The translations under genes and the position numbers were made by a program. A stretch of 64,000 nucleotides of DNA from an uncultured Verrucomicrobiota bacterium (GTDB lineage Bacteria; Verrucomicrobiota; Kiritimatiellia; RZYC01): positions 4,786 to 68,785 of the forward strand of contig CAZISY010000005.1 in assembly GCA_964542025.1 (NCBI GenBank), read 5' to 3'. Shown here one piece after another: positions 4,834-50,701 of the stretch. How positions within the stretch are numbered: the first letter of the stretch is position 1; each line of letters opens with the position of its first letter. The notes under the pieces are model-generated. The model was given only the letters and a program-made list of their open reading frames with translations. It had not been told where the DNA came from and did no database searches.

Positions 4834-4989
4834 ATGTCCAAGCATCCGAGTCTGAAGGGATCCAATAAAATTCAAGCCAAGCGCAACGTGTTGAAACGGT
4901 TTGAGCGTATTGATGTGTTGACGGACAATGGCAAATGGAAAGAGGGAGACCGTGCAACAGGACTCCCAAAAACGAAGCCCGTTGAATAA
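4834..4989 (+). CDS. Possible small basic protein (51 aa; MSKHPSLKGSNKIQAKRNVLKRFERIDVL...)
   Basis: A short ORF with a basic, ribosome-associated-protein-like composition. Its stop overlaps a possible alternative TTG start of the downstream pseudouridine synthase at 4982. No family recognised. Confidence 0.2.
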   Translation: MSKHPSLKGSNKIQAKRNVLKRFERIDVLTDNGKWKEGDRATGLPKTKPVE

Positions 4990-5734
4990 TACGGCCGCTG
5001 TTCGTTTGCAGAAATACCTGGCGGAGTGCGGGGTGGGTTCACGCCGTGCCTGTGAGAGGCTGATAGCATCCGGCGCGGTGAGCGTGGATGGTGATTCCGT
5101 TTTGGACCAGGGGGTTCGGGTGGTACCCGGGCGTCAGCGCATCTGTGTGAGCGGTCGGGAAGTGGGGGCTCAGCGGCTGGTGTATCTCCTTATAAACAAG
5201 CCCGTCGATGTGTTATGTACCTCATCGGATGAAGCGGGCCGGCGTACTATCCACGCACTGCTGCCCGATTTGGGGATCCGAGTTTACAATGTAGGCCGCC
5301 TGGATCGGCAGAGCGAGGGGTTGCTGCTTGTTACGAATGACGGGGATTTGGCAGCACGCCTGATGCATCCCCGTTATCATGTGGGCAAGGAATACCTGGT
5401 GTGGTGTACGAAAACGCTATCCGATGGAGAGTTGCAATCCATGCGGGATGGTCTCGTATGCCAGGGCGATTGCTTGCGCGCCAGTGAAATACATCTCGAC
5501 CACACGGCTGACGATACCTATTGTTACTCCGTTCTGCTCCACGAGGGAAAAAACCGGCAAATCCGCCGGATGTTTGCCGCATTGTACGTTCCGGTTGTGC
5601 GTTTGCTTCGAGTGGCAATCGGCCCGCTTCGTCTTGAGGATTTAAAGCCGGGAGAATGGAGGCATATGGCCGAGGCGGAAATCAGGGAACTGTATGCTCT
5701 AACGAACGAACTGCGGGATCGGGCATCTGACTGA
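4928..5734 (+). CDS. RsuA/RluB-family rRNA pseudouridine synthase (S4 domain plus PseudoU_synth_2). An alternative start at TTG 4982 is possible.
   Basis: S4 domain (VRLQKYLAECGVGSRRACERLIASGAVSVDG) and the catalytic motif VGRLDRQSEGLLLVTNDGDLAARLMHP. Confidence 0.8.
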   Translation: MANGKRETVQQDSQKRSPLNNTAAVRLQKYLAECGVGSRRACERLIASGAVSVDGDSVLDQGVRVVPGRQRICVSGREVGAQRLVYLLINKPVDVLCTSSDEAGRRTIHALLPDLGIRVYNVGRLDRQSEGLLLVTNDGDLAARLMHPRYHVGKEYLVWCTKTLSDGELQSMRDGLVCQGDCLRASEIHLDHTADDTYCYSVLLHEGKNRQIRRMFAALYVPVVRLLRVAIGPLRLEDLKPGEWRHMAEAEIRELYALTNELRDRASD

Positions 5735-5802
5735 AGGGCTTGGGCCTGTTCTCGTCAGATAAATGTAAAAGCCGGGGCCTCAAGCCGCAGTGAAAGGGAA
5801 AA

Positions 5803-6279
5803 ATGGCGCGAAGATACGATATACAAGGCACGAATAACTACATCATTGCTGCGTCCGTTTTTCTTCTGATTGGAGCATGGCATTTTATTGATGGATGGTT
5901 CCCGAGGCAATCGGTTCGGGATATTCATCCCAAAGAAGTGGTTGTCAAAGCCTCGGCTGCCGGCGTGGTTGCGAAAATAGAAATTGCGCTTCAACAGGAA
6001 GTTGCTGATGCGGTCCCTCTAATCAGGCTGAAAACCGTTGAAACGCCGGCCAAAGAGATCACGCTGAGTATGCAGGATGAACTGAATCCGAAAGCCAAGG
6101 TGCATAGCGGCGAGGTGGCGGAAATTCATGTTCAGGAGAAAGCTCAAGTCTCTATAGGTCAGCCGTTGGTTACGTTGAAAGCCACGCGCGACAGTTACTA
6201 TCTGTACAACAAGACTACGGCTGTCATCACGTTGCTTGGCGCCCTGATTTGCGGGATCATCCACCGGCTCGTTCGGTAA
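5803..6279 (+). CDS. Hypothetical membrane protein with a biotinyl/lipoyl-like barrel-sandwich segment
   Basis: N- and C-terminal hydrophobic helices. The central SGEVAEIHVQEKAQVSIGQPLVTLKA resembles a lipoyl/HlyD barrel-sandwich hybrid motif. Confidence 0.4.
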   Translation: MARRYDIQGTNNYIIAASVFLLIGAWHFIDGWFPRQSVRDIHPKEVVVKASAAGVVAKIEIALQQEVADAVPLIRLKTVETPAKEITLSMQDELNPKAKVHSGEVAEIHVQEKAQVSIGQPLVTLKATRDSYYLYNKTTAVITLLGALICGIIHRLVR

Positions 6280-6427
6280 TTACGTAACATCTTGAGAAGA
6301 AAAGCGTTATTTAAACTTGACGATTTTTCGCTTAATCGTACCATTTCACATTATCACTGTTAGGCGGAACAAGTTGTAACAAACGGGAACGAGTACTTCG
6401 CTGGTACGGGATTGAAGGAGCTGAGTT

Positions 6428-10677: not shown

Positions 10678-11078
10678 AAAAACACTTTAAAGAACATGAC
10701 CTGTTTGCCGCGCACAACGGCATTGAACTCATTGAAATCCGGGAAGGATATGCGATGGCCCGCATGCCTGTGAAGCCCTTTCATCAGAACGGTGCAGGGA
10801 TTGTTCACGGCGCCGCGATCTTCACGCTGGGCGATCTGGCGTTTGCCGCCGCCTCCAATTCGAGGGGATCCGTGGCTGTTGGAATTAACGTGAGCATTTC
10901 CTACATGAAAGCGGCCGCGTCTGGCGTATTGTGTGCAGAAGCCGTCGAAGAAATCACCAGCAACAGGTTGGGTCAATACACCGTCCGCATTACGGAAGAG
11001 ACCGGCGGATTGATCGCCCTCATGAGCGGTATGGTGTATCGGAAAAAGGAGCCGTTGGTGGCGGATGAGGAGTCCTGA
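10665..11078 (+). CDS. PaaI/YbgC-type hotdog-fold thioesterase
   Basis: GIVHGAAIFTLGDLAFAAASNS is a hotdog thioesterase (4HBT) motif. It overlaps the ROK gene end by 13 nt. Confidence 0.7.
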   Translation: MERIKKHFKEHDLFAAHNGIELIEIREGYAMARMPVKPFHQNGAGIVHGAAIFTLGDLAFAAASNSRGSVAVGINVSISYMKAAASGVLCAEAVEEITSNRLGQYTVRITEETGGLIALMSGMVYRKKEPLVADEES

Positions 11079-11106
11079 CTCCATGCGCTGAAAACCGGCG
11101 CACGAG

Positions 11107-12036
11107 TTATTTTTCTTCTCGGAAGTAGGGGTGTCCCATTTCGGCAGGGCCCAGGCTGCCGCGTGATTTGCGGATGGATGACACCACCAGAATGAAAATG
11201 GTGACCAGATACGGCAGCATGTCGATGACGTATTGAGAAATGGGGATGTTGAATCGCTGCAATCGGAAGCCGATGATATCGAGACCGCCGAAAAGATAGG
11301 CGCCCAGAAAAACCATCCACGGATTCCATTTGCAGAAGATGACCAGCGCAATGGCGATCCATCCGCGTCCGGCGGTGATATTATCCTGCCAGGCCGGAAC
11401 GTCCACGAGTGAAAGGTAGGCCCCGCCCAGGCCGCAGAGTATGCCGCCCAGTATCACATGGATGTATTGATAGAGAGTGACCCGTATGCCGGCGGCATCG
11501 GCGGCCGCCGTATTTTCGCCCACCGCGCGCAGATGAAGTCCGCATCGGGTGTGATACAGATAAATAGAGCCGAAAATTACAGCGGCGTAGCCGCCGTAGA
11601 CCAACCGGTCGCGACAGAAAAAGACGGGGCCCAGAAAGGGAATTTCGCACAGCAACGGGAGCGGGTAGGGTTGAAAGAATTGTTTCATGTTTTCAGGGAG
11701 CGCCATCCCCACAAGGTCTTTCCCGATGAAGCTTGAAAAGCCCATGCCGAAAATGGTGAGCGCCAGGCCGGTGACCACCTGATTGGCCCGCAGGCTGATG
11801 GTCAGCAAGCCGAAGATCAGCGCCCCAAGCCCGCCGGAGAGCATGGCAGCCAGCAGCGCCAGGGATACGCTGGATGTGTGCATGCCGACCTGGAAGCCGA
11901 TCACGGCGCCCATCAGCATCATGCCTTCGAGTCCAAGATTCAATTTTCCGCTTCGCTCGACGAAAATTTCACCCAGCACCGCAAAAAGCAATGGAGTTCC
12001 CGCCACGATAGCCGCCACCAGCAGATCACTCAGCAT
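11107..12036 (-). CDS. ABC transporter permease (BMP/nucleoside-type, second permease)
   Basis: Multi-TM protein with a conserved ABC type-2 permease architecture. It lies in an operon with the ATPase and the BMP lipoprotein. Confidence 0.8.
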   Translation of the reverse strand: MLSDLLVAAIVAGTPLLFAVLGEIFVERSGKLNLGLEGMMLMGAVIGFQVGMHTSSVSLALLAAMLSGGLGALIFGLLTISLRANQVVTGLALTIFGMGFSSFIGKDLVGMALPENMKQFFQPYPLPLLCEIPFLGPVFFCRDRLVYGGYAAVIFGSIYLYHTRCGLHLRAVGENTAAADAAGIRVTLYQYIHVILGGILCGLGGAYLSLVDVPAWQDNITAGRGWIAIALVIFCKWNPWMVFLGAYLFGGLDIIGFRLQRFNIPISQYVIDMLPYLVTIFILVVSSIRKSRGSLGPAEMGHPYFREEK

Positions 12037-16732: not shown

Positions 16733-16807
16733 TGGCTCCGGCGACAGGGCTCGAACCTGTAACATCCTGGTTAACAGCCAAGCGCTCTACCATTGAGCTA
16801 CGCCGGA
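16733..16807 (-). tRNA. tRNA-Asn (anticodon GTT)
   Basis: Reverse complement TCCGGCG-TA-GCTC-AATGGTA-GAGC-G-CTTGG-CTGTTAA-CCAGG-ATGTT-ACAGG-TTCGAGC-CCTGT-CGCCGGA-G-CCA folds as a 75-nt cloverleaf. The T-loop is TTCGAGC, the anticodon loop is CTGTTAA, and CCA is encoded. Confidence 0.9.
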
Positions 16808-33547: not shown

Positions 33548-35266
33548 ATGATGAAGCGCTGGATAACGGTGCCATACAATAGTGAGGCGGCAGACCATCT
33601 GGAAAAATCCGGAGGTCTGCCGCCTGCCGTATCCAGACTGTTTTCCGCTCGTGGTTTTCAAACAATCCATCAGATCAATTCTTTCTGTGAGTCACGGTTA
33701 AGCGGATTGACAGACCCGTTTTTACTGAATGGCGTCGAACAGGCCTCGTTACGACTGATTCAGGCACTGAAGAATCATGAACGCGTCACTGTCTTTGGGG
33801 ATTATGATGTTGATGGAATCACCAGCACGGTACTCTTAACCCGTTGCCTTAACGAGTTGGGAATTCAGACAACACCTTTCATCCCTAGTCGCATCGAAGA
33901 GGGGTATGGTGTAAGCACAGAAGCGATGAAACGGTGTGTGGAAGATACTGCACCCAACTTGATCGTAACGGTGGACTGCGGAGTCTCTGCCGTTAAACAG
34001 GTGAAAGAAGCGAACGACCTCGGAATTGATGTCATTATTACCGATCATCATGAACCGGGCGATGAGGTTCCCGATGCAGTTGCCGTAATTAATCCTAAAC
34101 TTCAATCCGCATCACCATTCAGTGACATTGCCGGCGTTGGTGTTGCTTTTAAGCTTCTTCACGGTTTAGTCAAGTACGGACGACTGGCGAAACTTCCGTT
34201 GTTTGATTCCTTCGATCTGCGGCATCGGCTGGACTTCGTGGCCGTTGGCTCCATATGTGACGTAGTTCCTCTCACCGACGAAAATAGAGTTTTCGCTAAG
34301 CAGGGATTAAACTACCTGAAAAAGACTCAAATTCCCGGCTTTGTCGCATTGGCGGAATGTGCCGGACTATCTCTTGAAACTATAGGCAGTTATCAAGTGG
34401 GCTTTCATCTTGGACCACGTCTTAATGCTGCAGGAAGAATTGCAGAAGCTGAAACATCGTTGAAGCTCCTGCTGACCGATGATTTTGACGAAGCCAGGAA
34501 AAATGCTGAATTATTGAATGCGTTTAACTTGGAACGTCGAAAAATGGAGGAAAGGATACTAAATGAAGCGTGTGAACAAATAGAAATGTCAAAAACCGCT
34601 AAAGAACGAATTTTTCTGATTGTCCAATCAAAGAATTGGCATCCCGGCGTAATCGGAATAGTGGCTTCAAGACTTGTGCAGAAATACTATCGGCCAACGG
34701 CGGTTATTTCATTTGATGAGAATGGATTGGGCAGGGGATCGGCCCGTAGTATTGAAAGCTTTAACCTTGTTGAATCCATTGAGGCTTTTTCTTATTGTCT
34801 GGAGAAATTTGGCGGACATCCAATGGCGGCTGGATTCAGTATAAAAGAAGCTAAACTTGAGGAGTTTTCTGAGTTAATCAACACCTACGCATCCCAAAAA
34901 CTGGGTCAGCATGATCTTCATCCAGTCGTTCATGTAGATTGTACTCTTTTTATGAGAGAATTTGATGAGGTACTGTACCAATGGGTGGAACAATTAGAAC
35001 CTTTCGGGACAAAAAACAGCAAACCTGTTTTTGCCTTCTGCGATGAACAAGTTTTCGTCACAGAAAAAAAACTGGTTGGACAAAAACATACCCGAGTCAC
35101 GATAACGGATGGCTCCCACTTTGTTCGCGGGATATATTTTAACCATCAGCCTCACGAGATTCCCGAGCAGCATCAGCACGTTAAGATTGCTTTCAGTGCC
35201 CAGCTCAACACTTTTCGGGATACGGCTCAGCTGGAAATGCAAATAGTTGATATTCAGCCTGCATGA
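33548..35266 (+). CDS. recJ: Single-stranded-DNA-specific exonuclease RecJ
   Basis: DHH motifs (VFGDYDVDGITS, ITDHHE) and the DHHA1 motif (GGHPMAAG). Confidence 0.9.
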   Translation: MMKRWITVPYNSEAADHLEKSGGLPPAVSRLFSARGFQTIHQINSFCESRLSGLTDPFLLNGVEQASLRLIQALKNHERVTVFGDYDVDGITSTVLLTRCLNELGIQTTPFIPSRIEEGYGVSTEAMKRCVEDTAPNLIVTVDCGVSAVKQVKEANDLGIDVIITDHHEPGDEVPDAVAVINPKLQSASPFSDIAGVGVAFKLLHGLVKYGRLAKLPLFDSFDLRHRLDFVAVGSICDVVPLTDENRVFAKQGLNYLKKTQIPGFVALAECAGLSLETIGSYQVGFHLGPRLNAAGRIAEAETSLKLLLTDDFDEARKNAELLNAFNLERRKMEERILNEACEQIEMSKTAKERIFLIVQSKNWHPGVIGIVASRLVQKYYRPTAVISFDENGLGRGSARSIESFNLVESIEAFSYCLEKFGGHPMAAGFSIKEAKLEEFSELINTYASQKLGQHDLHPVVHVDCTLFMREFDEVLYQWVEQLEPFGTKNSKPVFAFCDEQVFVTEKKLVGQKHTRVTITDGSHFVRGIYFNHQPHEIPEQHQHVKIAFSAQLNTFRDTAQLEMQIVDIQPA

Positions 35267-35503
35267 GAAATAATAATGGGGTGTGCGTGCCTAAACGCCA
35301 TTGCATTTTCTTCGAAGCAAGTAACGTCGCATAATATAGGTTATGCGCATATTATGGCTGCGGGCCGTACAATATATGGTGTTTTTGCTTATTAACAGCC
35401 TGTTTAAATCACATACGTCAGGCGGGAGTACTGTATAACAATGAACTGGGGAGTTCGAGTGAGACTAGAGCTTAATTACACGGGATACGGCAATATAAGA
35501 AAA

Positions 35504-36967
35504 CTAAGACTTCAACGCTTTTTCATAGACGGCAATATAGTCACGCGCAGCAGTACTCCACGAGTGTTCCTCACGCATGATTCTCGATCTCAAGAGGCTC
35601 CAAAAAGTTTTGTTGCGATACTTTTCAAGTGCTAATTCCAGCGTTTGAAGCAGAGCCGCCCCGGAATACTCATTAAAAACAAAGCCATTTCCGACCGGCG
35701 GCAATTCCCCTTGGGACACACTGTCGTCACAATTGTGAATAGTATCCTTTAAACCACCTGTTGCATGTACTATGGGGACCGTTCCATAGCGAAGACTGTA
35801 CATTTGGTTCAGCCCGCAGGGTTCAAACCGTGACGGCATGAGGAACATATCCGACCCGGCTTCAATTTTATGAGATAACCCCGAATTGAACTCCAGTCGA
35901 ACAGCGAACTTCCCAGGCCAACGCTTGGCCCACTCCAAACACAAATCATGGTATTTCTGCTGACCGGTCCCCAGTACAACCAGAGATAGGTCATGCTGCA
36001 TTATTCGTTCAATACTCTGGGCTAAAATATCCAACCCTTTTTGTTCGGCCAAACGCGTCACCATCCCGATGAGCGGTCGCGATGGTTCAAAATCAAGCCC
36101 CATCTCTTTTAGTAGCGCCGTTTTACAAAAGTGTTTACCATCAATTTTATTGTCGCTGAATTGTGCGGCAATATAAGGATCAGTTTCTGGATTCCACTCG
36201 TCACAGTTCACACCATTTAATATGCCGACGAGGCGTTCACCCTTATCCATCAAAACGCCGTGCAAACCACAACCGTGTTCTTCGGTGCGTATTTCAGACG
36301 CGTAAGATTGGCTTACGGTAGTTGCATATTGGGACACCACAATTCCAGCCTTCATGCAGTTGAGCTGATTGTAATACTCAATTTCATACATGTTATAGCA
36401 AGAAAAAGGCAAATTCGATATGGGGAAAGAACTGCCTGGATAGACCCCCTGGTACGCCAAATTATGAATGGTAAAAACTGTTTTTTCTGTTTGCTGCCTC
36501 CCCCCTCCATGAATGCCGTGCCGCAGAAATAGAGGAAGCAATCCGGTTTGCCAATCATTCGCATGAACCAGGTCTGGACGCATTTTTAACGCGTCAATCA
36601 ATGCAACGACGGCCTTTTGAAAAAAAGTAAACCGCTCAAAGTTGTCATCATAATCCCGCGTGGATAACCCATAGAGATAGGTGCGATCAAAAAATTCATC
36701 ACGACGAATGTAGTAGGTTTTCGGAAAGTCTACTTCGTCAATCCAAACCTCTGCGGTGTGATTGCTTAGTCCAACAGGTATTTGCAGCCGCATTTGCGTA
36801 TCACGCAGATTACTATTTTTCTCAATAATCTGCCGGTAACAAGGAACTACGCGTACCACGTCGACGCCAAGAGATTGAAGGGCATCAGGGAGCGCTTTAG
36901 CTATATCGGCAAGCCCCCCTGTTGATGCGTACGGACTGATCTCACTTGCTGCAAAAAGTACTTTCAT
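35504..36967 (-). CDS. glgA: Glycogen synthase (ADP-glucose type, GT5)
   Basis: N-terminus MKVLFAASEISPYASTGGLADIA is the GlgA K-x-G-G-L motif. The C-terminal GT-B domain has the EPCGLNQMYSLRYGT motif. Confidence 0.85.
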   Translation of the reverse strand: MKVLFAASEISPYASTGGLADIAKALPDALQSLGVDVVRVVPCYRQIIEKNSNLRDTQMRLQIPVGLSNHTAEVWIDEVDFPKTYYIRRDEFFDRTYLYGLSTRDYDDNFERFTFFQKAVVALIDALKMRPDLVHANDWQTGLLPLFLRHGIHGGGRQQTEKTVFTIHNLAYQGVYPGSSFPISNLPFSCYNMYEIEYYNQLNCMKAGIVVSQYATTVSQSYASEIRTEEHGCGLHGVLMDKGERLVGILNGVNCDEWNPETDPYIAAQFSDNKIDGKHFCKTALLKEMGLDFEPSRPLIGMVTRLAEQKGLDILAQSIERIMQHDLSLVVLGTGQQKYHDLCLEWAKRWPGKFAVRLEFNSGLSHKIEAGSDMFLMPSRFEPCGLNQMYSLRYGTVPIVHATGGLKDTIHNCDDSVSQGELPPVGNGFVFNEYSGAALLQTLELALEKYRNKTFWSLLRSRIMREEHSWSTAARDYIAVYEKALKS

Positions 36968-37019
36968 CGGAGTAGTTACCAACAGAACACCAACACAAAT
37001 TTTTTGAATGCTAAAGGAT

Positions 37020-37964
37020 TCAGCGGACAAGGTAAATCATTTTCTTGAGTACATTGTCTCGTTCAACGTCCAGTACAATAGCACTTAGACGATTGTTGAC
37101 AAATTCTTTTAAAAAATACTCCCCCCGCGTCTGACTGGTCATGTTCATGGAGTTCACTTTGCGAATGCGATCCCCCTGTTCCAGTCCCATTTCTTTAAAA
37201 AAAGTTTTTTCACCAACCATATCCAACTCATAACCTGTTATTTTTTTGTCAGGATTGTAATCCGGCTTAAGCGAGATGTATATCGAAGCAAGTCGCTCGG
37301 GATCATCCAGTAGCTCGGAATAGTAATCCATCAACACTTTCCGGTTAAGAATCCACCGATTTTCACCGATTTGTTTGGCCATAAAGGACGCATCCTTCCC
37401 TTGTTCCGTTTCGTTTCGTTCGGAAGAACCGAATGGGGTTCCCCCTTCCGCACGATCATGAAAAGCAATCAGAAGAACTCGCTCCTCGTCCCCTTTTTTC
37501 AGTCGAATGCGATCCCGGTCGATACTGACAACCTGATACTCCTGGAGAAACATTTGCTCCTGCAGAACAAGTTGTTCACCTGTTTGCAGGTGATCAATGA
37601 TGGCCGCTCTGATCACATGACCGTTTCGATGATCACCGGAAAAAAAAGTGCCTGCCAAGCGATACAAAGCGTCTAGCTGGTTGTCCGACGTTGTTATGGG
37701 TTGCCCTAAAGATTTCAATGGAGACCATATGAAACGTACGGTATCTGTGGCACCATAATCAGAATGCAATTCGCACGATTGCATGCTGGATGACGGGGCG
37801 GATATCGAGTGAGACACTCGTCTGGACCAAAGCCCTCCATACAGCAGGCCGGCCGATAATAAGGCCAGTACAAGCAGTACCTGAATTTTGTTACGAATGA
37901 CTCTGTTCATGATGAAAAAAAAGGCGAAAGGACTTGTAAGCCGGATTTTGTATCGTTTTTTCAA
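37020..37964 (-). CDS. Hypothetical membrane-anchored protein with a C-terminal PDZ-like segment (GspC/PilP-like?)
   Basis: N-terminal TM (IQVLLVLALLSAGLLYGG). The C-terminus has a PDZ-like pattern. No confident family assignment. Confidence 0.4.
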   Translation of the reverse strand: MKKRYKIRLTSPFAFFFIMNRVIRNKIQVLLVLALLSAGLLYGGLWSRRVSHSISAPSSSMQSCELHSDYGATDTVRFIWSPLKSLGQPITTSDNQLDALYRLAGTFFSGDHRNGHVIRAAIIDHLQTGEQLVLQEQMFLQEYQVVSIDRDRIRLKKGDEERVLLIAFHDRAEGGTPFGSSERNETEQGKDASFMAKQIGENRWILNRKVLMDYYSELLDDPERLASIYISLKPDYNPDKKITGYELDMVGEKTFFKEMGLEQGDRIRKVNSMNMTSQTRGEYFLKEFVNNRLSAIVLDVERDNVLKKMIYLVR

Positions 37965-38303
37965 ACGATCCTGGTCATTTATCTAATGCGATCAACCCGG
38001 AACTTTTCCGGTTTTTACACCGGATTGAAGCGGGCCGCTTCTTGTTCCCTATTTGATCTTGCTCCGGATGGGGTTTGCCCTGCCCCCGCCATTACTGTCG
38101 GGGCGGTGGTCTCTTACACCACCATTTCACCCTTATCCCGTTACCGGGACGGTATATTTTCTGTGGCACTTTCCATCTCACACGTTATGACATGTGAGTC
38201 CCAGGCTTTCACCGGGGCATCCTGCCCTATGGAGTCCGGACTTTCCTCTCCGCAACCAGCGGTTGCGCAGCGACCAAGCCATCCTTTCGCCATTTAATCG
38301 TTT
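37964..38303 (-). ncRNA. rnpB: RNase P RNA (bacterial type A), rnpB
   Basis: The minus strand carries GGAGAGGAAAGUCCGGACUCCAUAGGGCAGGAUGCC (the P4 region), AUAAGGGUGAAAUGGUGGUGUAAGAGACCACC, and CCAUCCGGAGCAAGAUCAAAUAGGGAACA...AGUUCCGGGUUGAUCG, matching the conserved RNase P RNA cores. The ends are approximate. Confidence 0.85.
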
Positions 38304-39001
38304 CTATATACAATTCTTCCGCAATAAGAACACACCGTCAGCGAATCATTGCGCTTAGCATTATTCACCAATTGGGGCGGTAAATTCATGTGACAGCCTC
38401 CGCATGATCCATTTTCGATCGGTACTACAGCTCCGGTTTTTACATGCTTCATGATACGATCATAACGGCCGAGTACATCTACGGGGACTGGTGTAATGAA
38501 TTGACTTCTTTCATTGTTTACGGTTTCTATCTGTTCTTTCAAGAACGACGCACGCTCATCCATTTTTTTCAACGCTTCAGCAATATGCTCCTCGTCGGCC
38601 TTCATGCCAATTTGAATGTCCTGGAGGCGTTTTTTCGTCTCTTCCACTTTTCCCATCAGCAGTAATTCTCTGTCTTCGAGAGCTGCGATCTCCTGTTTAG
38701 CCTTTGCAATTTCCTGTTCCAATGCGCGATATTCGTCGTTGTTTTTTATCTGAAACTGCTGTTCCCGATACTTTCGTATTCTGGCATTGATCTGTTCAAT
38801 CTCTGTTTCCGTATCCTTGACAGCGACCATGGTTGCCTTCAATTCATCGTTAGCGTTTTGCAGTGAACATCGATGAGCATTAAGGCGACTGTCGAGTTCT
38901 TTTTTTCTCTGGGGAATATCCTTGGCTTCCTGTACCAGCCTTCCCAGTTTGACATCTTTCTCCTGAACGATCAGTAGACTTTCAATCATTGTTGTTGCCA
39001 C
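38294..39001 (-). CDS. COG1579/DUF164-family coiled-coil protein with a C-terminal C4 zinc ribbon
   Basis: A long coiled coil, then CGGCHMNLPPQ...CSYCGRIVY, a Zn ribbon characteristic of the HP0958/YqiC-like family. Confidence 0.65.
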   Translation of the reverse strand: MATTMIESLLIVQEKDVKLGRLVQEAKDIPQRKKELDSRLNAHRCSLQNANDELKATMVAVKDTETEIEQINARIRKYREQQFQIKNNDEYRALEQEIAKAKQEIAALEDRELLLMGKVEETKKRLQDIQIGMKADEEHIAEALKKMDERASFLKEQIETVNNERSQFITPVPVDVLGRYDRIMKHVKTGAVVPIENGSCGGCHMNLPPQLVNNAKRNDSLTVCSYCGRIVYRND

Positions 39002-39040
39002 GATATTCCTTTCCCCTCTACGATATGTTGCGTGTCCTAG

Positions 39041-39403
39041 TCATTCGGTTTTTTTACTCATCAGGCGGTTACGTTCATCCACATGAATAATGCAGGGGCG
39101 GTGTTTTCCCAATTCGGCCTCATCCAGTTGGCAGTACGTAATGATAATCACCTGATCGCCAACCATTCCCTGCCTGGCTGCCGGTCCATTAAGCATCACT
39201 TCCCCTGTGTTACGGGCCCCCTCAATGGCATAAGTAATCAGCCGCTCGCCGTTGTTCACATTCAAAACATGAACCTGTTCTCCGGGAAGAATACCCGCTG
39301 CTTCAATGAGCACCGGATCAATGCTGATGCTACCTTCATAGTGTAATTCAAGTCCGGTTAAAGCCGCTCGGTGGATTTTAGATTTCAGCATGATTCTTTG
39401 CAT
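39041..39403 (-). CDS. panD: Aspartate 1-decarboxylase
   Basis: MLKSKIHRA...GSISID (pyruvoyl-forming Gly-Ser) ...YAIEG is the canonical PanD pattern. Confidence 0.9.
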   Translation of the reverse strand: MQRIMLKSKIHRAALTGLELHYEGSISIDPVLIEAAGILPGEQVHVLNVNNGERLITYAIEGARNTGEVMLNGPAARQGMVGDQVIIITYCQLDEAELGKHRPCIIHVDERNRLMSKKTE

Positions 39404-39415
39404 GGTCGAGCCGTC

Positions 39416-40066
39416 CTATTCACAAATCAGACCTGTTTCGCGCAGAGATTCCCAAGTAACCATTCCGGGAATGCTTCCCCGTTCGAGTAATCTCCTAACA
39501 TATTTGCCCAAGAGGTCAATTTCAAGATTAACGAGCATCCCTTTTTTGAGCTCGCCAAACGTGGTATGCTCGAACGTGAACGGAATAATATGTACACAAA
39601 AGGAACTCTTTTTCAGTTCTGCAACAGTCAGGCTTACGCCGTCAATACTCACAGACCCTTTGTAGACAACTCCGTCCATCATCTCCTTTGAGCAGGAAAA
39701 CTCGAAAGCCCAATCGCGGCCAACCTGCTGAATGGACTCTACAACCGCAGTACCATCAACATGCCCAACAACAATATGCCCCCCCATCTCCTGTCCCCAT
39801 CGCAGTGATCGCTCCATATTAATACATTGTGAAACTTTTTTCTGGCCCAGTGTCGTTCGATCAAACGTTTCGCGCAAAACATCAAAATGCAGGGCGTTTT
39901 GTTCGATGCGTGTAACAGTCAGACAAATTCCCGAAACAGCCACACTTTCACCGGCTTCCAGGGGGTGATCCCACGGGGTTTGCGGATCAATAACGATGTG
40001 CCCCCACTTTTCCTTCAAATCCAATGACTGAATGATCCCCTTCTTTTCCACAATGCCACTAAACAT
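39416..40066 (-). CDS. ribE: Riboflavin synthase (alpha subunit)
   Basis: N-terminal MFSGIVE...G, and the duplicated lumazine-binding domain motifs GxSxxxxGVxLT. Confidence 0.85.
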   Translation of the reverse strand: MFSGIVEKKGIIQSLDLKEKWGHIVIDPQTPWDHPLEAGESVAVSGICLTVTRIEQNALHFDVLRETFDRTTLGQKKVSQCINMERSLRWGQEMGGHIVVGHVDGTAVVESIQQVGRDWAFEFSCSKEMMDGVVYKGSVSIDGVSLTVAELKKSSFCVHIIPFTFEHTTFGELKKGMLVNLEIDLLGKYVRRLLERGSIPGMVTWESLRETGLICE

Positions 40067-44303: not shown

Positions 44304-44529
44304 AAAAAAACCCCGAGAGACTATTCATCTTCGGGATAGATTTCACCTAACGGTTATACTGTATCTTTTTCCATCCAGACTGTTACTGTCGGCTATGGAT
44401 GATCCGTTAAAGTCACATGTTCTTTTAACGGACGACCATATCAGTTCGCTGCCTTCAGCAAACTCGCGGGCTTCACCGCCGGTCAGGAATTTCTTTCCAC
44501 GACAGGAAAGGCACCATGTCCCAAAGATT
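44304..44529 (-). promoter_or_regulatory. FMN riboswitch (RFN element) with a terminator hairpin and U-run, leading the ribBA operon
   Basis: The minus strand carries ...GGAAAGAAAUUCCUGACCGGCGGUGAAGCCCGCGAG...GCCGACAGUAACAGUCUGGAUGGAAAAAGAU, matching the conserved RFN cores. The P1 halves are AUCUUU and AAAGAU. It is followed by CCCGAAGA...UCUCUCGGGG plus U7, directly before the ribBA ATG. Confidence 0.8.
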
Positions 44530-44637
44530 GCTGCATTCATATTATTATTTTTGTTATTCACGCAAGGGATAATATGATTTATCTTCTGAATTCATTTCGT
44601 TTTAAAAACTATCGGCATTCACCGAGAGAAAAGAGGG

Positions 44638-45747
44638 ATGGGCATGGCTTTTGAAAGCGGCAGTATTGGATTTCGTATGTATTGGGTTCCCAAACCGTTC
44701 ACGCGTGATGCTGTTGACCGTTTTGCGGAACACGCCGCTGTTCCGCTTTCTGCTATCAAGGATGACGAGCTGCGCGGCTGGGTAACCGGGCGGCACTTGC
44801 TTGATCGTCATATTACTGAAGAAACGGCTTTTCGAGGTCAGTATTTCCACCTGGCTATGCAGCAGGCTGCCCGCAAAATCCCAGCGTCCCTGCTGCGCGC
44901 GGAATGCAAAATGGAAGAGATGGCCATGCTCGCCGCCGAGGAAAAACCTTTTTTAAACAGACAGGAGCGTGCCGCGATTCGGAAAACGGTGTCTGAGAAA
45001 CTGCTGCCGCAAATGCCTCCGCAGATCAAGGGAACGCCGTTTGTCTATGCGCCGGAATCATCGTTTCTCTATGCTTCGGCCCAGTCGGCCAAGCAAAGCG
45101 ATCTGTTTGTTGCTCTGATTCAACAAACGCTGGGTGTTACGATTATACCCTGTACGCCGGACTTCACCGCCTTACAGCAAACCAACACCGACATCCACCA
45201 ATGGAATGCCGTTTCCTTTTCACCCAAGGTTTCAAGCGATTTGATGGAACTCACCACCGGGCGGGATTTTCTGACCTGGCTTCTTTTCTATACGGAAGCC
45301 TGCGGAGGGACCTTCTCCAGCGAAGCACTGGGAGATATTCAGCTTATGCTGGAAGGGCCGCTTCTGTTTACCCATGAGGGAGCCGGAGCCTACGAAATTG
45401 TGTTGCGCAAAGGAGAACCGCTACTCAGCATGGAGGCGAAGTCCTGTTTACTCAATGGCAAGAAACTGCGCCAGGCCAAAGTGACGTTCACCATCGGCGA
45501 AGAGATATGGGCATTTACCCTGGATGCCGATGAGTGGATATTCCGAAATCTGACCCTTCCGAAAATTGAAGAGGTCATGGACGAAACCAGTTACTTTGAA
45601 GAACGAATCCGCCGACTCGAACGCTTCCTGGAAATGTTCCTTTTCATTTTCGGTCAATTCACGGCGGCACGCAGTGATAAACCGCGTTGGAACAAAATGC
45701 AAAAAGACATATTCAAATGGGTTGACGAACGGGTGGGACGTATCTAG
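44638..45747 (+). CDS. Distant RdgC-like (recombination-associated protein RdgC family) protein
   Basis: The N-terminal F.MYWVPKP...T block and the central SEKLLPQMPPQIKGTPFVYAPESSFLYASAQSAKQSDLFVALIQQTLGVTIIPCTP block parallel the RdgC core. The match is remote. Confidence 0.45.
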   Translation: MGMAFESGSIGFRMYWVPKPFTRDAVDRFAEHAAVPLSAIKDDELRGWVTGRHLLDRHITEETAFRGQYFHLAMQQAARKIPASLLRAECKMEEMAMLAAEEKPFLNRQERAAIRKTVSEKLLPQMPPQIKGTPFVYAPESSFLYASAQSAKQSDLFVALIQQTLGVTIIPCTPDFTALQQTNTDIHQWNAVSFSPKVSSDLMELTTGRDFLTWLLFYTEACGGTFSSEALGDIQLMLEGPLLFTHEGAGAYEIVLRKGEPLLSMEAKSCLLNGKKLRQAKVTFTIGEEIWAFTLDADEWIFRNLTLPKIEEVMDETSYFEERIRRLERFLEMFLFIFGQFTAARSDKPRWNKMQKDIFKWVDERVGRI

Positions 45748-45749
45748 CC

Positions 45750-46697
45750 GTGTCCATATTCAACAAAACGGGAATCTATCTTCTGGCTGGACTGATCCTG
45801 GGCGTTTTTTCCGCCACGCTGATCATCGTTCTTAAGCCTGCGTTGTCAATACATGGCCATTCCCCTACCCTGTCGATTGATCGCACGGGGCATTCCGATG
45901 AGACTGGCGGCACCGCACCATCGTCCAATACGTTCCATGCACTGATCCCGGGGAGGCCGGATTCTTCCGCCGCGCTAACAACTTCGTCGGCGAGCTCTTC
46001 AGACCGACTTCCTGAAGAGGGTTCAGCTGCGCAGGCGGAAATGGATCGCCTTCGCAAGTTGAACGTTCAGCTTCAATCGCAGTTGGCTGAAATACTTTCC
46101 TGGATGCTGGCGAACTACAAAGGACGTTATCCATTGGCCGAACATCAAATCACCAACCTCAGTTTTCATGCGATGACCGACACTTTTGACCTGAATCCAG
46201 CCGTAGCGGAATTTATGCATCTTCAAAGCAACGAAGTGCTCATGATCAACGACTTGCTTTCATATGGCGGAACCCTTGCAAATGATCTTGTGGCGGAAAA
46301 CATTTCAGTCACAGAATCGGAAAACGGAAAGGTTGTGCTGCACATTCCCCCCTTTCAAGAGGAGGGCGCCGTACTTCGGGAGGACGTCTACTCGGCGCTT
46401 GAGGCAACATTGGGCCCCTATCGTTTTGATCGTTTCATGGATATAACGGCCGGGAAAATGGATGAGGACTTCAACTATTTTGGCGACGCCAGTCATACCA
46501 TTATTATTGAGCCGATTTATTCCGAAACCGAGGACGGACTTCAGTGGCGAATTCGCGACGGATGGATCATTCTGGAAGAAGATTCGTCCAAAACAATTAA
46601 GGCCACAGAAACCGTCGTCCGCACCCTTCCTGAAGAATACGATAAATACGTCAACTACCTGCCGGCTTATTTATATTCAGACGCTGCACAGGAATAG
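45750..46697 (+). CDS. Hypothetical membrane-anchored protein (N-terminal TM, Ser/Thr-rich linker, coiled coil, C-terminal globular domain)
   Basis: GTG start 3 nt after the RdgC-like stop, so the two are coupled. No recognisable domain. Confidence 0.45.
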   Translation: MSIFNKTGIYLLAGLILGVFSATLIIVLKPALSIHGHSPTLSIDRTGHSDETGGTAPSSNTFHALIPGRPDSSAALTTSSASSSDRLPEEGSAAQAEMDRLRKLNVQLQSQLAEILSWMLANYKGRYPLAEHQITNLSFHAMTDTFDLNPAVAEFMHLQSNEVLMINDLLSYGGTLANDLVAENISVTESENGKVVLHIPPFQEEGAVLREDVYSALEATLGPYRFDRFMDITAGKMDEDFNYFGDASHTIIIEPIYSETEDGLQWRIRDGWIILEEDSSKTIKATETVVRTLPEEYDKYVNYLPAYLYSDAAQE

Positions 46698-46716
46698 CCT
46701 GTCTGTGCAGAGAACG

Positions 46717-47400
46717 TTATGAGGGTTTGGCCGTCCGCGTGTTTTGCCGTTCATTGATCAGTGACAACAAATACGTATTTGACCGGAAGACCTCCTGGCA
46801 ATACGGGCAGGTCTGTTCGTCCTGCAATTTCAGTGCATCATAAGGCAGTTGACGGCCGCAGCTTGGACACCGGACCACTGTTTTATCAGGTTGATGTGAA
46901 TCCGGCTTCCTGGAGTCATCACGCCTGGTTGCGGCTTCCGGGTCAGGTTCCAACGTAATTTGAACTTCCGGAATTTGCGTTTCCGGTTCCTCGACGGATT
47001 TTTCTTCTGCGGGCTCAAGGGGCTGATTCGGGCGTGGCGGAATCGTTTTGATCACCGTTCCTGCATGCCATTCATCCAGATGTTCAGTCCACAATGCAGC
47101 CAATTCATCCAGATGGCTTTCAAGCCTCTTCAGCTGCTCAACGATCCGGGCAGTTTCAGCGCTTTGCGCGAGAGACGTTTCATTCGGTTTGCCGCCGGAC
47201 GATGCAGCCTGTTTCTGTTCATCCATCCGCTCAATAATCTGCGCCGTGACTGACGATTGCGCTTTAACCTGCTTCCGAAGAATGCTGCCAATGGCCTTTA
47301 GCTCGCGGCTCATGGCATTGTAACGAAACGCCACCATAAAAAGGGATACAATCAGCGCGCAAAACACCGTTCCGATGATTATGGCGCTCATCATGTCCAT
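46717..47400 (-). CDS. Hypothetical single-pass membrane protein with a coiled coil and a C-terminal CxxC...CxxC zinc ribbon
   Basis: TM (IIIGTVFCALIVSLFMVAF), a coiled coil, then RCPSCGRQ...CPYCQ. Its start overlaps the stop of the upstream response regulator (TAATG). Confidence 0.5.
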   Translation of the reverse strand: MDMMSAIIIGTVFCALIVSLFMVAFRYNAMSRELKAIGSILRKQVKAQSSVTAQIIERMDEQKQAASSGGKPNETSLAQSAETARIVEQLKRLESHLDELAALWTEHLDEWHAGTVIKTIPPRPNQPLEPAEEKSVEEPETQIPEVQITLEPDPEAATRRDDSRKPDSHQPDKTVVRCPSCGRQLPYDALKLQDEQTCPYCQEVFRSNTYLLSLINERQNTRTAKPS

Positions 47401-47816
47401 TACCTGTCTCCTGTGGCATTATTCTGCTTCATTTTGCGAACCGTCTCGGCGGTTTCCTGAAGAATTTTTTGTATCTGCTCAATCGGTGTCACCTTCAATA
47501 TAAAGTTCAACGCGCCCAGTTTGAAACACTTTTTCACGACTTCTTCATCCACATACGCCGACATCATGATCACTTTGGCATCAGGATGCGCCTCCATTAA
47601 CTCCGTTAACGCATCCAATCCGTTTTTCATCGGCATATCGATATCCATCAGCACGATGTCTGGTTTGTATCGGCTGAAATAGGTGATTGCGGCGGCTCCT
47701 GTGGCGGCCATGCCCACCAGTTTCATGCCTGCCCGCTCGATAACCATTTTGAGCAGGAAGCGAATATTCGCTTCATCATCCACAATTAAAACTGTGGGTA
47801 CATCCAAAGCCATCAT
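47400..47816 (-). CDS. Stand-alone CheY-like response regulator receiver
   Basis: VLIVDDE, the phospho-acceptor IVLMDIDMP and KVIMMSA motifs. 138 aa with no output domain. Its start overlaps the lpxA stop. Confidence 0.8.
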   Translation of the reverse strand: MMALDVPTVLIVDDEANIRFLLKMVIERAGMKLVGMAATGAAAITYFSRYKPDIVLMDIDMPMKNGLDALTELMEAHPDAKVIMMSAYVDEEVVKKCFKLGALNFILKVTPIEQIQKILQETAETVRKMKQNNATGDR

Positions 47817-48611: not shown

Positions 48612-49370
48612 CTAAAAAGGCGCCAATCCATCTTCACGCATGCTGATGTAGCGCAAGGCATCGGTCTGCGGGTCACAGCCGAGGATTATATGGTCCAATA
48701 CCCGGATATCAACGATTTTACCGCATTCAATTAAGGTCCGCGTTACCCGAATATCATCGGGCGACGGCGCGGGATCACCGGAAGGATGGTTATGCACAAG
48801 GATAACTGCTGCACCGGCCGTCCGGACTGCTTCTCGAAACACTTCCCGGGGATGAACCAGACTTGCATCCAATGTGCCGCGCGATATCTCCAGCGGACGC
48901 TGCTTCATCCGGTTTTTCACATCCAGAATGAGGAGCCAAAAGGATTCTTCTTCCCGAAGGCGGATTAAGGCATGCATGACGTCAGCCACATCAGACGGCG
49001 TGGTGATTCGTTTACCGGCGGACGACGGACCTCCCTTCACCCGAAGTCCTATTTCAAGTGCCGCTTTCAACACCTGCGCCCTCACCCGCCCAACCCCCGC
49101 CTGCTGAGCCAGTTCATCCGTCGATACCCGTGCCAGTGCCTGCAAGGAACCGTATTTTCGGAGCAATTCTTCTGCAATCTGAATGACGTTTCTCCCCCGA
49201 ACTCCGCTGCGCAGGATCAGGGCGATCAGCACATGATCCGAAACGTTTTCCACGCCGACCCGATCTGCAAGCTCACGCGGGCGCTCCTGTTCAGGAATGT
49301 CACGAACACGAAAACAGGTTTGGCTTATGGGATACTGCCCACCTTCGGATGATTCTTGTTCCGTTTTCAT
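48612..49370 (-). CDS. radC: RadC-like JAB-domain protein (UPF0758)
   Basis: The N-terminal HhH region and the JAMM motif HNHPSGDPAPSPDDIRVT. Confidence 0.8.
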   Translation of the reverse strand: MKTEQESSEGGQYPISQTCFRVRDIPEQERPRELADRVGVENVSDHVLIALILRSGVRGRNVIQIAEELLRKYGSLQALARVSTDELAQQAGVGRVRAQVLKAALEIGLRVKGGPSSAGKRITTPSDVADVMHALIRLREEESFWLLILDVKNRMKQRPLEISRGTLDASLVHPREVFREAVRTAGAAVILVHNHPSGDPAPSPDDIRVTRTLIECGKIVDIRVLDHIILGCDPQTDALRYISMREDGLAPF

Positions 49371-50701
49371 GATTGCGCTGTATCTACGGCCGAGGCTGCA
49401 CACTGTCTGTATTGCTGCTCGTTAATGAGGTATTGCGCATAACGGTGCAAAACCTGGGTTGGCATACGTGCATAAACGGCAAGAGCAGTTTCTCCGGCGC
49501 TTTTCTCCAGGATAACCCCGTCATGGTGAACGGACGCCTGCATTTTTGCATCGGAAAAAGGTATGGATAAATAGACTTCCTGAAAGGAGGATTTAAGTTG
49601 TTCGGAGAGCATATTCAGCAGTTCCCCAACCCCCTCGCCTGTAGTAGCAGAAATAGGAACGGAGAGTCGGTTCAGGCGGGCGAGTCGTCCGGCATTCTGG
49701 CGGCCGGAAGACAAATCAATTTTATTCAACGCCATAATCACCGTCCGATCACCGATACCCAATTCATCAAGAACCTGATTGACCGCGCTGATTTGCTCCT
49801 CCACCTGCTCACTGGATGCGTCCACCACATGAATGAGCACATCCGCCTGGGTCACTTCTTCCAATGTGGCGTGAAAGGCTTCAATCAGATGATGCGGCAA
49901 TTTGTTAATGAATCCCACGGTATCATTCAGGAGGGCCGGCTGGCGGTTGGGCAATTCCACTTTACGGGTCGTGGTGTCCAGCGTCACAAATAACGCATCT
50001 TTGGCTTCCACCGAGGCATCGGTCAGACAATTCAGCAGCGTGGATTTCCCGGCATTGGTGTAGCCAACCAGCGAAATGGACGCCCATCCGTGTCTGCGCC
50101 GCCCTCTTCTCAATTCGTTTCGATGCCGCTGAACATCTTTCAATTCATCCTGAATTTTTGCGATCTTTTCCCTGATTCTTCTCCGGTCCACTTCAATCTG
50201 CTGTTCGCCCGGACCGCCCCGCACGCCGATGCCCCCCGTTTGCCGTTCCAGATGCGTCCAGAGGCGCCTCAGGCGGGGCAACTGATAATTCAACAGCGCC
50301 AACTCCACCTGCAAGATGCCCTCCCGGCTTTTCGCATGCCTGGCAAATATGTCCAGAATCACCTGGGTTCGATCAATCACACACACCTGCAGCATCAATT
50401 CCAGATTTCGTCCCTGGGCCGGCGAAATTTCATCGTTGAAAACTACGGCATCACATTGCTTTTCCCGAACAGTTTCAGCCAAATGTTCCGCAGTCCCCTT
50501 GCCAATATAATGACCGGGATGAATGGACTTCTGCTTCAGGATCAGCTGGTCAACCACCGTGCCGCCAAGCGTATCCACCAGGCGCGCCAGTTCGGAAAGG
50601 GAATCCTTGATGCGCCATTCCTCATCAGCATGGTTCATTACGCACACCAGCAAACAGCGTTCGCCCGGAGGGGTTGTTTCGTATCCTTTTTTTTCTTTCA
50701 T
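49367..50701 (-). CDS. hflX: GTPase HflX
   Basis: The HflX N-domain, then G-motifs GYTNAGKSTLLN, DTVGF and NKID. Confidence 0.9.
   Translation of the reverse strand: MKEKKGYETTPPGERCLLVCVMNHADEEWRIKDSLSELARLVDTLGGTVVDQLILKQKSIHPGHYIGKGTAEHLAETVREKQCDAVVFNDEISPAQGRNLELMLQVCVIDRTQVILDIFARHAKSREGILQVELALLNYQLPRLRRLWTHLERQTGGIGVRGGPGEQQIEVDRRRIREKIAKIQDELKDVQRHRNELRRGRRRHGWASISLVGYTNAGKSTLLNCLTDASVEAKDALFVTLDTTTRKVELPNRQPALLNDTVGFINKLPHHLIEAFHATLEEVTQADVLIHVVDASSEQVEEQISAVNQVLDELGIGDRTVIMALNKIDLSSGRQNAGRLARLNRLSVPISATTGEGVGELLNMLSEQLKSSFQEVYLSIPFSDAKMQASVHHDGVILEKSAGETALAVYARMPTQVLHRYAQYLINEQQYRQCAASAVDTAQS

Follow-up and report, generated by a model that had tools for sequence, protein, structure and literature searches.

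Does a gene for a remote RdgC homolog, lying directly ahead of a gene for a membrane-anchored protein, form a single module with its neighbors, or do unrelated units abut here? The question is raised by 3.2 kb of a 64,000-nucleotide stretch of DNA (the window) from an uncultured Kiritimatiellia bacterium. The first-pass annotation had proposed that an RdgC-like DNA binder is tethered to the membrane there and that the genes may make up one DNA-handling or envelope-signaling module.

Tightly packed genes on two strands

The locus and its flanks are laid out as follows, with every ORF lying where the first-pass annotation had placed it:

44359..44532, minus strand: FMN riboswitch leader (Rfam RF00050, full model 1-138 covered)
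44551..44578, plus strand: promoter-like site upstream of rdgC (TTGTTA-16-TATGAT; weak evidence)
44638..45747, plus strand: ORF1, rdgC, 369 aa (367 aa if the start is 44644)
45750..46697, plus strand: ORF2, GTG start, 315 aa
46717..47400, minus strand: ORF3, 227 aa
47400..47816, minus strand: stand-alone receiver (REC), 138 aa
47817..48602, minus strand: lpxA
48612-49403, minus strand: radC (RadC domains by Pfam)
49367-50701, minus strand: hflX

The tight junctions could be read directly from the sequence. ORF1 ends in a TAG that is followed by 2 nt and then by the GTG of ORF2, which places ORF2 immediately downstream as described before, with a gap of 2 nt and not 3. On the other strand, the receiver stop and the ORF3 ATG overlap by 1 nt (TAATG) and the TAA of lpxA directly abuts the receiver ATG, bearing out the coupling of the receiver to both of its neighbors. 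ORF2 and ORF3 are convergent, with 19 nt between their stops. Since ORF1, ORF2, ORF3 and the receiver each have full-length homologs carrying conserved blocks, sequence conservation marks all four as real genes and not chance ORFs. Domain searches found no catalytic domain in the three hypothetical proteins, in agreement with the first reading, and a cluster look-up attached no name to any protein of the window.

Upstream of rdgC, the FMN riboswitch match falls just below the gathering threshold (65.0 bits against 66.2, E=1.4e-14). It leads the divergent ribBA-ribH-nusB-ftsY-ribD-ribE operon and leaves about 105 nt for an rdgC promoter. Scans of the region for promoters and terminators gave counts that were not above those of shuffled sequence.

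ORF1 is predicted to be a divergent RdgC over its full length

ORF1 matched the RdgC family in Pfam (PF04381) with 38.5 bits (gathering score 25), its residues 28-168 aligning to positions 25-159 of the 298 in the profile; only the N-terminal half is visible to sequence profiles. The structure provided the rest. An AF2 model of ORF1 (pLDDT 89.6, pTM 0.85) searched against the PDB with Foldseek retrieved RdgC of E. coli (2owl_B, E=2.1e-15) and of P. aeruginosa (2owy_A, E=4.1e-15), both with probability 1.00, in alignments of 351-352 columns with a TM of 0.70-0.75 on the target, while the next unrelated match came at E=9e-3. A profile of the ORF1 family also detected 2owl (E=9e-4). The RdgC relationship suspected for 44638..45747 is thus confirmed at the level of the fold. 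ORF1 does not reach the NCBIfam RdgC equivalog cut-offs (37 bits versus 330); since it satisfies the Pfam cut-off and not the NCBIfam ones, we assign it to RdgC at the family level and not as the proteobacterial equivalog.

ORF1 shares with the characterized proteins the fold over its full length and an LLP motif ahead of the gate. It differs from them in being about 65 aa longer (366-369 versus ~303 aa), in showing only 14-17% identity and in belonging to a PVC lineage, not to Proteobacteria. The gate is also altered. In E. coli RdgC, the gate-interface residues are R118 and F120 (PMC2965237). In an HMM alignment to 2OWL, these correspond to Q125 and P127 of ORF1, inside a family-invariant motif, L122-P124-M126-P127-P128 (LLPxMPP). 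From the alignment, the gate position appears conserved in the ORF1 family with a different chemistry and, as R118 and F120 are missing, ring closure may differ. ORF1 as a whole carries a net charge of -5.

The search returned 705 homologs, and the family is represented in the genomes of at least 571 species of Kiritimatiellota and Lentisphaerota. Relatives across the phylum share 40-50% identity, and NCBI already names some of the close ones RdgC. The homologs listed span 355-398 aa, and no fusion of RdgC to ORF2 occurs among them. Those of 365-368 aa begin with MAFESG, so translation of ORF1 probably starts at the second ATG, at 44644. Searches of ORF1 and ORF2 against PHROGs gave nothing except a phage RdgC-like PHROG. 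Altogether, the profile matches and the predicted structure identify ORF1 as a true, divergent and full-length RdgC and as a core gene of Kiritimatiellota/Lentisphaerota. [quoted passage not shown]

ORF2 belongs to an undescribed family of predicted envelope proteins

ORF2 has the following parts:

45774-45830, plus strand: membrane helix, residues ~9-27
Residues 28-95: Ser/Thr-rich disordered linker
Residues ~90-123: helix/coil
Residues ~124-315: conserved acidic alpha/beta domain

The GTG start, the membrane helix and the Ser/Thr-rich linker noted at first are all borne out, Ser and Thr making up 31% of the linker against 16% of the whole protein. A public gene call (P0122) shortens ORF2 to 218 aa; the conservation of the N-terminal membrane helix in its homologs supports the long GTG form. 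A word-indexed homology search returned 7 matches only, which suggested an orphan gene. This reading was overturned by an exhaustive HMMER profile search, which delineated an undescribed family of ~300-aa proteins with 229 cluster representatives. A metagenome scan with a narrow ORF2 alignment found 5 loci. Pfam has no entry for the conserved domain, and no relative of solved structure could be detected: profile searches of both ORF2 and ORF3 against PDB and Pfam gave only coiled-coil or zinc-finger noise, and the structure model of ORF2 is poor (pLDDT 56).

We then considered on which side of the membrane this domain lies. About 8 residues precede the single helix of ORF2, and a soluble region of ~290 residues follows it. 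Across the family the segment ahead of the helix spans ~3-15 residues and its flank is positive; charge bias gives an N-in/C-out topology for 18 of 25 members, ties included. The C-terminal domain has a net charge of -22. In seven distant relatives, an ECF sigma factor is joined through one membrane helix to an ORF2-type domain. Topology, acidity and fusions together indicate that the ORF2 domain is most likely periplasmic and would be unable to hold a cytoplasmic RdgC, so the membrane tethering of an RdgC-like binder proposed by the first-pass annotation is not upheld.

ECF sigma factors can be fused to a membrane helix and an extracytoplasmic regulatory domain, as in IutY/ECF243 and SCO4117/ECF52, and activation of such fusions by proteolysis has been described (PMC8999054); the seven relatives of this architecture carry the ORF2 domain as their extracytoplasmic C-terminal part. 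ORF2 differs from them in that it has neither a sigma nor an anti-sigma domain, its cytoplasmic tail is only ~8 residues long, and no ECF sigma gene is adjacent within the window. We also considered ORF2 as an ECF anti-sigma factor and rejected this reading: the stretch ahead of the helix is no more than 8 residues long, rdgC and not an ECF sigma gene lies upstream, and what the sigma-fusion proteins share with ORF2 is the extracytoplasmic domain only. ORF2 would instead be a type-II membrane-anchored periplasmic protein, in which a flexible Ser/Thr-rich stalk and a helical segment carry the acidic alpha/beta domain. Because this domain is the extracytoplasmic part of ECF sigma/membrane-helix fusions in remote relatives, its most likely role is in sensing or binding something within the envelope.

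The receiver and ORF3 close an hflX-radC-lpxA operon

The facing strand carries the receiver and ORF3, in which two conserved parts stand out:

47326-47382, minus strand: ORF3 N-terminal helix, residues 7-25, nearly invariant in the alignment
46750-46887, minus strand: ORF3 C-terminal CPxC...CPYC zinc ribbon, residues 172-217, conserved

The receiver scored 92.4 bits against PF00072 (gathering score 30.2) and stays under every NCBIfam CheY/CheB equivalog cut-off. Its translation contains the canonical residues D13, D14, D58, S86, F105 and K108. The lpxA product was assigned by two NCBIfam models (NF003657, 311.3 bits versus 226; TIGR01852, 308 versus 231). ORF3 has 7 homologs and gave only sub-threshold zinc-ribbon matches in Pfam and NCBIfam; charge bias predicts an N-out/C-in topology in 7 of 7 family members. 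Its motifs, CPSC at residue 178 and CPYC at residue 198, are separated from the helix by a variable Pro/Glu-rich linker. A zinc-binding (ZAS) anti-sigma factor with an HxxxCxxC motif was considered and rejected: the cysteines C178xxC181 and C198xxC201 sit C-terminally and not N-terminally, no His is found three residues upstream (VVRCPSC), and no anti-sigma Pfam entry was matched.

The order hflX-radC-lpxA-REC-ORF3 is shared by the window and by loci L001, L002 and L084, and in each of these REC-ORF3 follows lpxA. REC-ORF3 is the tail of the hflX-radC-lpxA operon. In L084, a gene for a YaeI/LpxG-like phosphoesterase follows ORF3; the window has no homolog of it.

The receiver resembles CheY-like single-domain regulators that act by docking: it stands alone, none of the phospho-acceptor and switch residues is missing, and translational coupling ties it to a partner that is not an enzyme. 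Unlike them, it is embedded in the hflX-radC-lpxA operon with no histidine kinase nearby, and its presumed partner is an uncharacterized membrane zinc-ribbon protein. The zinc ribbon of ORF3 is predicted to face the cytoplasm, and the translational coupling suggests that the two proteins interact. Most likely, the phosphorylated receiver would dock at the membrane, onto the portion of ORF3 that lies in the cytoplasm, and REC-ORF3 would make up a minor output arm of a two-component pathway inside a lipid-A/envelope operon.

The rdgC-ORF2 pair is restricted to one clade

We further investigated how often these genes occur together, by searching for ORF2-family genes within 10 kb of rdgC in 80 species-level rdgC loci. 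They were absent from 77 of the 80, and no single gene family was found near rdgC in more than 13. BLASTP with the window proteins revealed synteny in L001 and L002 only, to which profile and six-frame searches added L004. In all, the loci in which rdgC is immediately followed by a member of the ORF2 family are the window, L001, L002, L004, L081-83, L087, L090, L091 and L097, and no others. The eight pair-bearing loci with a usable full-length RdgC, a count that leaves out L082 and L083 (repeats of L081) and L091 (RdgC cut off), form a single clade in a neighbor-joining tree of RdgC, and the operon was found in none of ~60 other loci outside that clade. Conversely, six loci (L088, L092-L096) have ORF2-family genes and no rdgC with them. 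The first-pass annotation had held that its reading would fall if the RdgC relationship failed and the genes were scattered in relatives: the fold is confirmed, and the scattering was found in part, co-localization being clade-restricted.

Within the clade, the genes flanking the pair differ from locus to locus (in L087 they are tyrS and a BCCT transporter gene) and the gap between rdgC and ORF2 ranges from 2 to 60 nt. The pair has been kept through several rearrangements of its flanks, which is more than passive adjacency would give; a functional link may lie behind it. ORF2 would be part of the rdgC transcript in one sub-clade only, and we see no sign of contact between ORF1 and ORF2.

Probably two convergent units rather than one module

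The window, L001 and L002 have the four genes rdgC, ORF2, ORF3 and REC side by side. Elsewhere they come apart. L081 carries rdgC-ORF2 and L084 carries lpxA-REC-ORF3 on different contigs of one sample; given this common origin and their similar divergence from the window, the two contigs presumably belong to one genome. In L097, rdgC-ORF2 faces lpxA-radC-hflX across a repeat-rich non-coding gap, and both REC and ORF3 are absent. We therefore consider it likely that the 3.2 kb hold two independent convergent units, rdgC-ORF2 and the tail of hflX-radC-lpxA-REC-ORF3, which abut because gene order has been inherited in this Kiritimatiellia lineage. These same loci, together with the 77 of 80 rdgC loci without ORF2, speak against the single module first proposed. 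A signaling chain from envelope to DNA, in which ORF2 senses, ORF3 and REC transduce and RdgC acts on DNA, would fit the adjacency in three loci and the complementary topologies of ORF2 and ORF3. Beyond the separate contigs and L097, however, it has to face the L087 pair in its different surroundings and a REC-ORF3 pair that travels always with lpxA and never with rdgC, and we regard it as highly improbable.

Two further readings concern rdgC-ORF2 itself. A DNA-handling module in which ORF2 fixes the RdgC ring, and with it DNA, at the inner membrane would account for the tight spacing of the pair and for its having stayed together in one clade while the flanks changed. This is very unlikely given the short, positively flanked segment ahead of the helix, the charge of the conserved domain, the seven relatives that place this domain across the membrane from a cytoplasmic sigma factor, the occurrence of each gene without the other, and the lack of any fusion among the homologs listed. 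A phage exclusion system is brought to mind by lambda RexA, a DNA-binding protein and structural homolog of RdgC whose partner is the membrane protein RexB (PMC11077077); ORF1 and ORF2 likewise place an RdgC-fold protein, here the DNA sensor, beside a membrane protein that would be signaled to abort infection. We consider this extremely improbable. ORF1 is much nearer to RdgC proper, with no RexA entry among the top 50 matches of the PDB fold search, and its phylum-wide distribution is that of a core gene and not patchy as is usual for defense genes. RexB is a polytopic membrane protein, whereas ORF2 is single-pass with a large predicted periplasmic domain. PADLOC models match neither ORF1 nor ORF2, and composition shows no anomaly around 44-48 kb.

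A last possibility is that the domain of ORF2 represents a novel type of extracytoplasmic sensor in the PVC group, occurring both free-standing and in ECF sigma fusions, and that its stable operon with rdgC in one Kiritimatiellia clade reflects a coupling of envelope status to the control of recombination or DNA uptake. We consider this very improbable; if real, such coupling would depend on the membrane helix or on co-regulation and would not involve direct tethering.

Significance

These results do not overturn current understanding, and their value lies mainly in annotation: a public gene call that cuts ORF2 short is corrected, and a receiver and membrane zinc-ribbon pair inserted in a lipid-A operon is brought to attention. 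PVC proteins of ~366 aa are confirmed at the fold level as true relatives of RdgC, which extends to PVC a family whose study has been confined almost entirely to Proteobacteria, with a gate motif, LLPxMPP, that differs. The extracytoplasmic domain of ORF2 defines an undescribed family that recurs behind ECF sigma factors and could merit a Pfam entry.

Two convergent operon ends around rdgC

The open reading frames that the first-pass annotation had described were all recovered at their positions:

44638..45747, + strand: ORF1, rdgC, 369 aa
45750..46697, + strand: ORF2, membrane protein with a GTG start, 315 aa
46717..47400, - strand: ORF3, membrane zinc-ribbon protein, 227 aa
47400..47816, - strand: stand-alone receiver (REC), 138 aa
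47817..48602, - strand: lpxA

Read directly from the sequence, the ORF1/ORF2 junction consists of TAG, two bases and GTG. On the other strand, the receiver ATG immediately follows the lpxA TAA, and one base is common to the receiver stop and the ORF3 ATG (TAATG). ORF2 and ORF3 are convergent, their stops 19 nt apart. The second ATG of ORF1, at 44644, is the likelier start because homologues are 365-368 aa long and begin MAFESG. Metagenome-assembled genomes supplied the closest homologues; their labels read Kiritimatiellae/Kiritimatiellia or, less precisely, "Verrucomicrobiota" or "Lentisphaerota".

Other features of the window were also recorded. A full-length FMN riboswitch (RF00050, 44359-44532, - strand, E=1.4e-14) sits in the ribBA leader and occupies most of the 334-nt ribBA-rdgC gap; at 65.0 bits against a gathering score of 66.2, it was missed by the default gathering-threshold scan. 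In a mechanical ORF listing, hflX (49367-50701) and radC (48612-49403) share 37 nt (49367-49403); the true radC start is probably further downstream, since radC homologues in the related loci L001 and L002 align only from residue 11-23 onward. GC content is 0.45-0.475 at 34001-40000, a stretch that contains the RNase P RNA gene (37921-38289, - strand), vs 0.50-0.57 elsewhere. A tRNA lies at 16736-16807 (- strand).

ORF1 has the fold of RdgC and an altered gate motif

ORF1 matches Pfam PF04381 at 38.5 bits (gathering score 25) over its N-terminal half only, and scores far under the equivalog cut-offs of the NCBIfam RdgC models. A profile built from 28 family members detects the solved RdgC structures 2OWL (E=9e-4) and 2OWY (E=5e-3), again within the N-terminal half. 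The AlphaFold2 model built from the same alignment is confident (pLDDT 89.6, pTM 0.85), and Foldseek against the PDB aligns it over about 350 columns with 2owl_B (E=2.1e-15) and 2owy_A (E=4.1e-15), at probability 1.00 and a TM of 0.70-0.75 on the target; nothing else in that search was significant, the next match being a kinetochore CCAN subunit (E=9e-3). The proposed RdgC relationship is thus borne out by Pfam, family profile and structure comparison, and the predicted model identifies ORF1 as a real, PVC-type RdgC at fold level.

RdgC encircles DNA as a dimeric ring and holds RecA in check (PMC2965237, PMC1885664), and by homology ORF1 may do the same. In the HMM alignment, R118 and F120, the gate residues of E. 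coli RdgC (PMC2965237), correspond to ORF1 Q125 and P127, which fall within an LLPxMPP motif invariant across the family. The gate is thus a conserved region, yet chemically different from that of E. coli RdgC.

A word-index search returned 705 family matches, nearly all of 365-368 aa, and the family occurs in at least 571 species-representative genomes; several members already carry the NCBI name RdgC. When every ORF lying up to 4 kb from rdgC was clustered for the best 80 species loci, no companion gene family recurred in more than 13 loci. Among the genes immediately 3' of rdgC are glycosyltransferase-like ones and those for large secreted proteins. In 12 of the 80 loci (L051, 9482-9973, + strand, and 11 others), rdgC is immediately preceded, in the same orientation, by a conserved ORF of ~163 aa (MQLNDEQKALVAQWVTEGCGLSEIQRRL...); this ORF is a different lineage-specific rdgC partner, in another sub-clade.

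The rdgC-ORF2 pair marks one RdgC clade

An ORF2-family gene follows rdgC after 2-60 nt in the window and in L001, L002, L004 (where it is interrupted by the contig end), L081-83, L087, L090, L091 and L097. The flanks of the pair vary: the window has the rib operon, L081 has V-type ATPase and an AMP-binding gene, L087 has tyrS and a BCCT transporter, and L097 has rlmN. In a neighbour-joining tree of RdgC, a single clade unites the eight paired loci whose RdgC is full-length and usable (L082 and L083 repeat L081; the L091 RdgC is cut off). No ORF2-family gene was found within 10 kb at the remaining rdgC loci, about 60 of which are covered for at least 1.5 kb downstream. The converse is also seen, ORF2-family genes without rdgC, in L088, L092, L093 (adjoining a tail-specific protease), L094 (adjoining a PEGA-domain gene and smc), L095 (downstream of a PhoU-like gene identified by reading the translation) and L096 (between guaA, before it, and fliOP, after it). 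The pair therefore holds as a unit within one clade despite its differing flanks, but not across rdgC loci at large, and the operon is a derived trait of that sub-clade.

ORF2 is predicted to place its domain outside the cytoplasm

A word-indexed search found seven close ORF2 homologues; aligned with these, the N-terminal helix is kept, the linker (residues 28-95; 31% Ser+Thr in ORF2) is variable and the C-terminal 220 residues are strongly conserved. An exhaustive HMMER profile search gave 229 cluster representatives (73 at E<=1e-30), mostly of ~300 aa, and ORF2 is therefore part of a sizeable undescribed family. We found no Pfam model, no sequence relative in the PDB and no convincing fold match (structure model poor, pLDDT 56), and its function is putative. 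A public gene call for the same sequence, P0122 (218 aa), begins at an internal Met and omits the conserved helix and linker. Every full-length homologue has the helix, and there is also a call of 315 aa, P0283; both support the long, GTG-started form.

In 18 of 25 family members, positive charge is stronger on the N-terminal side of the helix, and the ORF2 domain carries a net charge of -22. Remote members P0232, P0256, P0260, P0261, P0266 and P0267 carry N-terminal ECF sigma regions 2 and 4, and P0249 region 4 only; the three of these seven fusions whose sequences were read run from ECF sigma through one membrane helix to the ORF2-like domain. Fusion of extracytoplasmic regulatory domains to sigma factors is a known architecture (PMC8999054). 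Together, flank charge, net charge and fusions predict an extracytoplasmic ORF2 domain. The seven fusions hold one or more copies of the domain (three matched stretches in P0232); in P0246 the domain occurs twice, with no Pfam sigma match.

The first-pass annotation had suggested that ORF2 tethers an RdgC-like DNA binder to the membrane. With an acidic domain predicted to be periplasmic and a cytoplasmic tail of only 8 residues, ORF2 could therefore not tether a cytoplasmic DNA ring. We also considered a Rex-like exclusion pair, since λ RexA is structurally RdgC-like and acts with the membrane protein RexB (PMC11077077). The evidence is against ORF1 and ORF2 as their counterparts: no PADLOC model matches, the ORF1 fold search is dominated by RdgC and not RexA, ORF1 belongs to the core genes of the phylum, ORF2 is single-pass, and base composition reveals no island at 44-48 kb.

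REC and ORF3 extend the lpxA operon

The receiver matches PF00072 at 92 bits, has D13, D14, D58, S86, F105 and K108, and is canonical. ORF3, with only seven detectable homologues and a putative function, combines a nearly invariant N-terminal helix, a variable Pro/Glu-rich linker and an invariant CPxC...CPYC ribbon (CPSC at 178, CPYC at 198). Charge bias predicts N-out/C-in in 7/7, which would place the zinc ribbon in the cytoplasm, on the same side as the receiver.

The order hflX-radC-lpxA-REC-ORF3 recurs in L001, L002 and L084. A single module of rdgC, ORF2, ORF3 and REC, as first proposed, is contradicted by three cases: the sample of L084 has its rdgC-ORF2 pair on a separate contig, L081, both contigs being similarly diverged from the window; L087; and L097, where rdgC-ORF2 and lpxA-radC-hflX converge as they do in the window, but across a non-coding gap of 1.3 kb that lacks REC and ORF3. 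REC-ORF3 is thus part of a different operon from rdgC-ORF2, and the supposed module is two adjacent operon ends, inherited independently. In the simplest history, rdgC-ORF2 convergent on the lpxA operon would be ancestral for the clade, a sub-lineage would have gained REC-ORF3 behind lpxA, and later rearrangements would have parted the units in some genomes.

The L097 gap (4967-6280) is packed with direct repeats and also contains a 21-nt palindrome, CGACCGCCGTCTCGGCGGTCG, in three copies (one with a single-base difference); these look REP-like and sit at the place of the window's REC and ORF3. In L084, a 259-aa metallophosphoesterase (10876-11655, + strand) overlaps the stop of the ORF3 homologue; its similarity to YaeI and to LpxG, a lipid-A enzyme of chlamydiae, is below cut-off in both cases. 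This hints that REC-ORF3 lies inside a lipid-A gene cluster, although no homologue of the phosphoesterase was found in the window.

Altogether, the novelty is modest: a PVC-type RdgC, confirmed at fold level, whose gate motif is altered; an undescribed, predicted extracytoplasmic domain family common to ORF2 and ECF sigma fusions; and a lipid-A operon with an appended pair of receiver and membrane zinc-ribbon protein.
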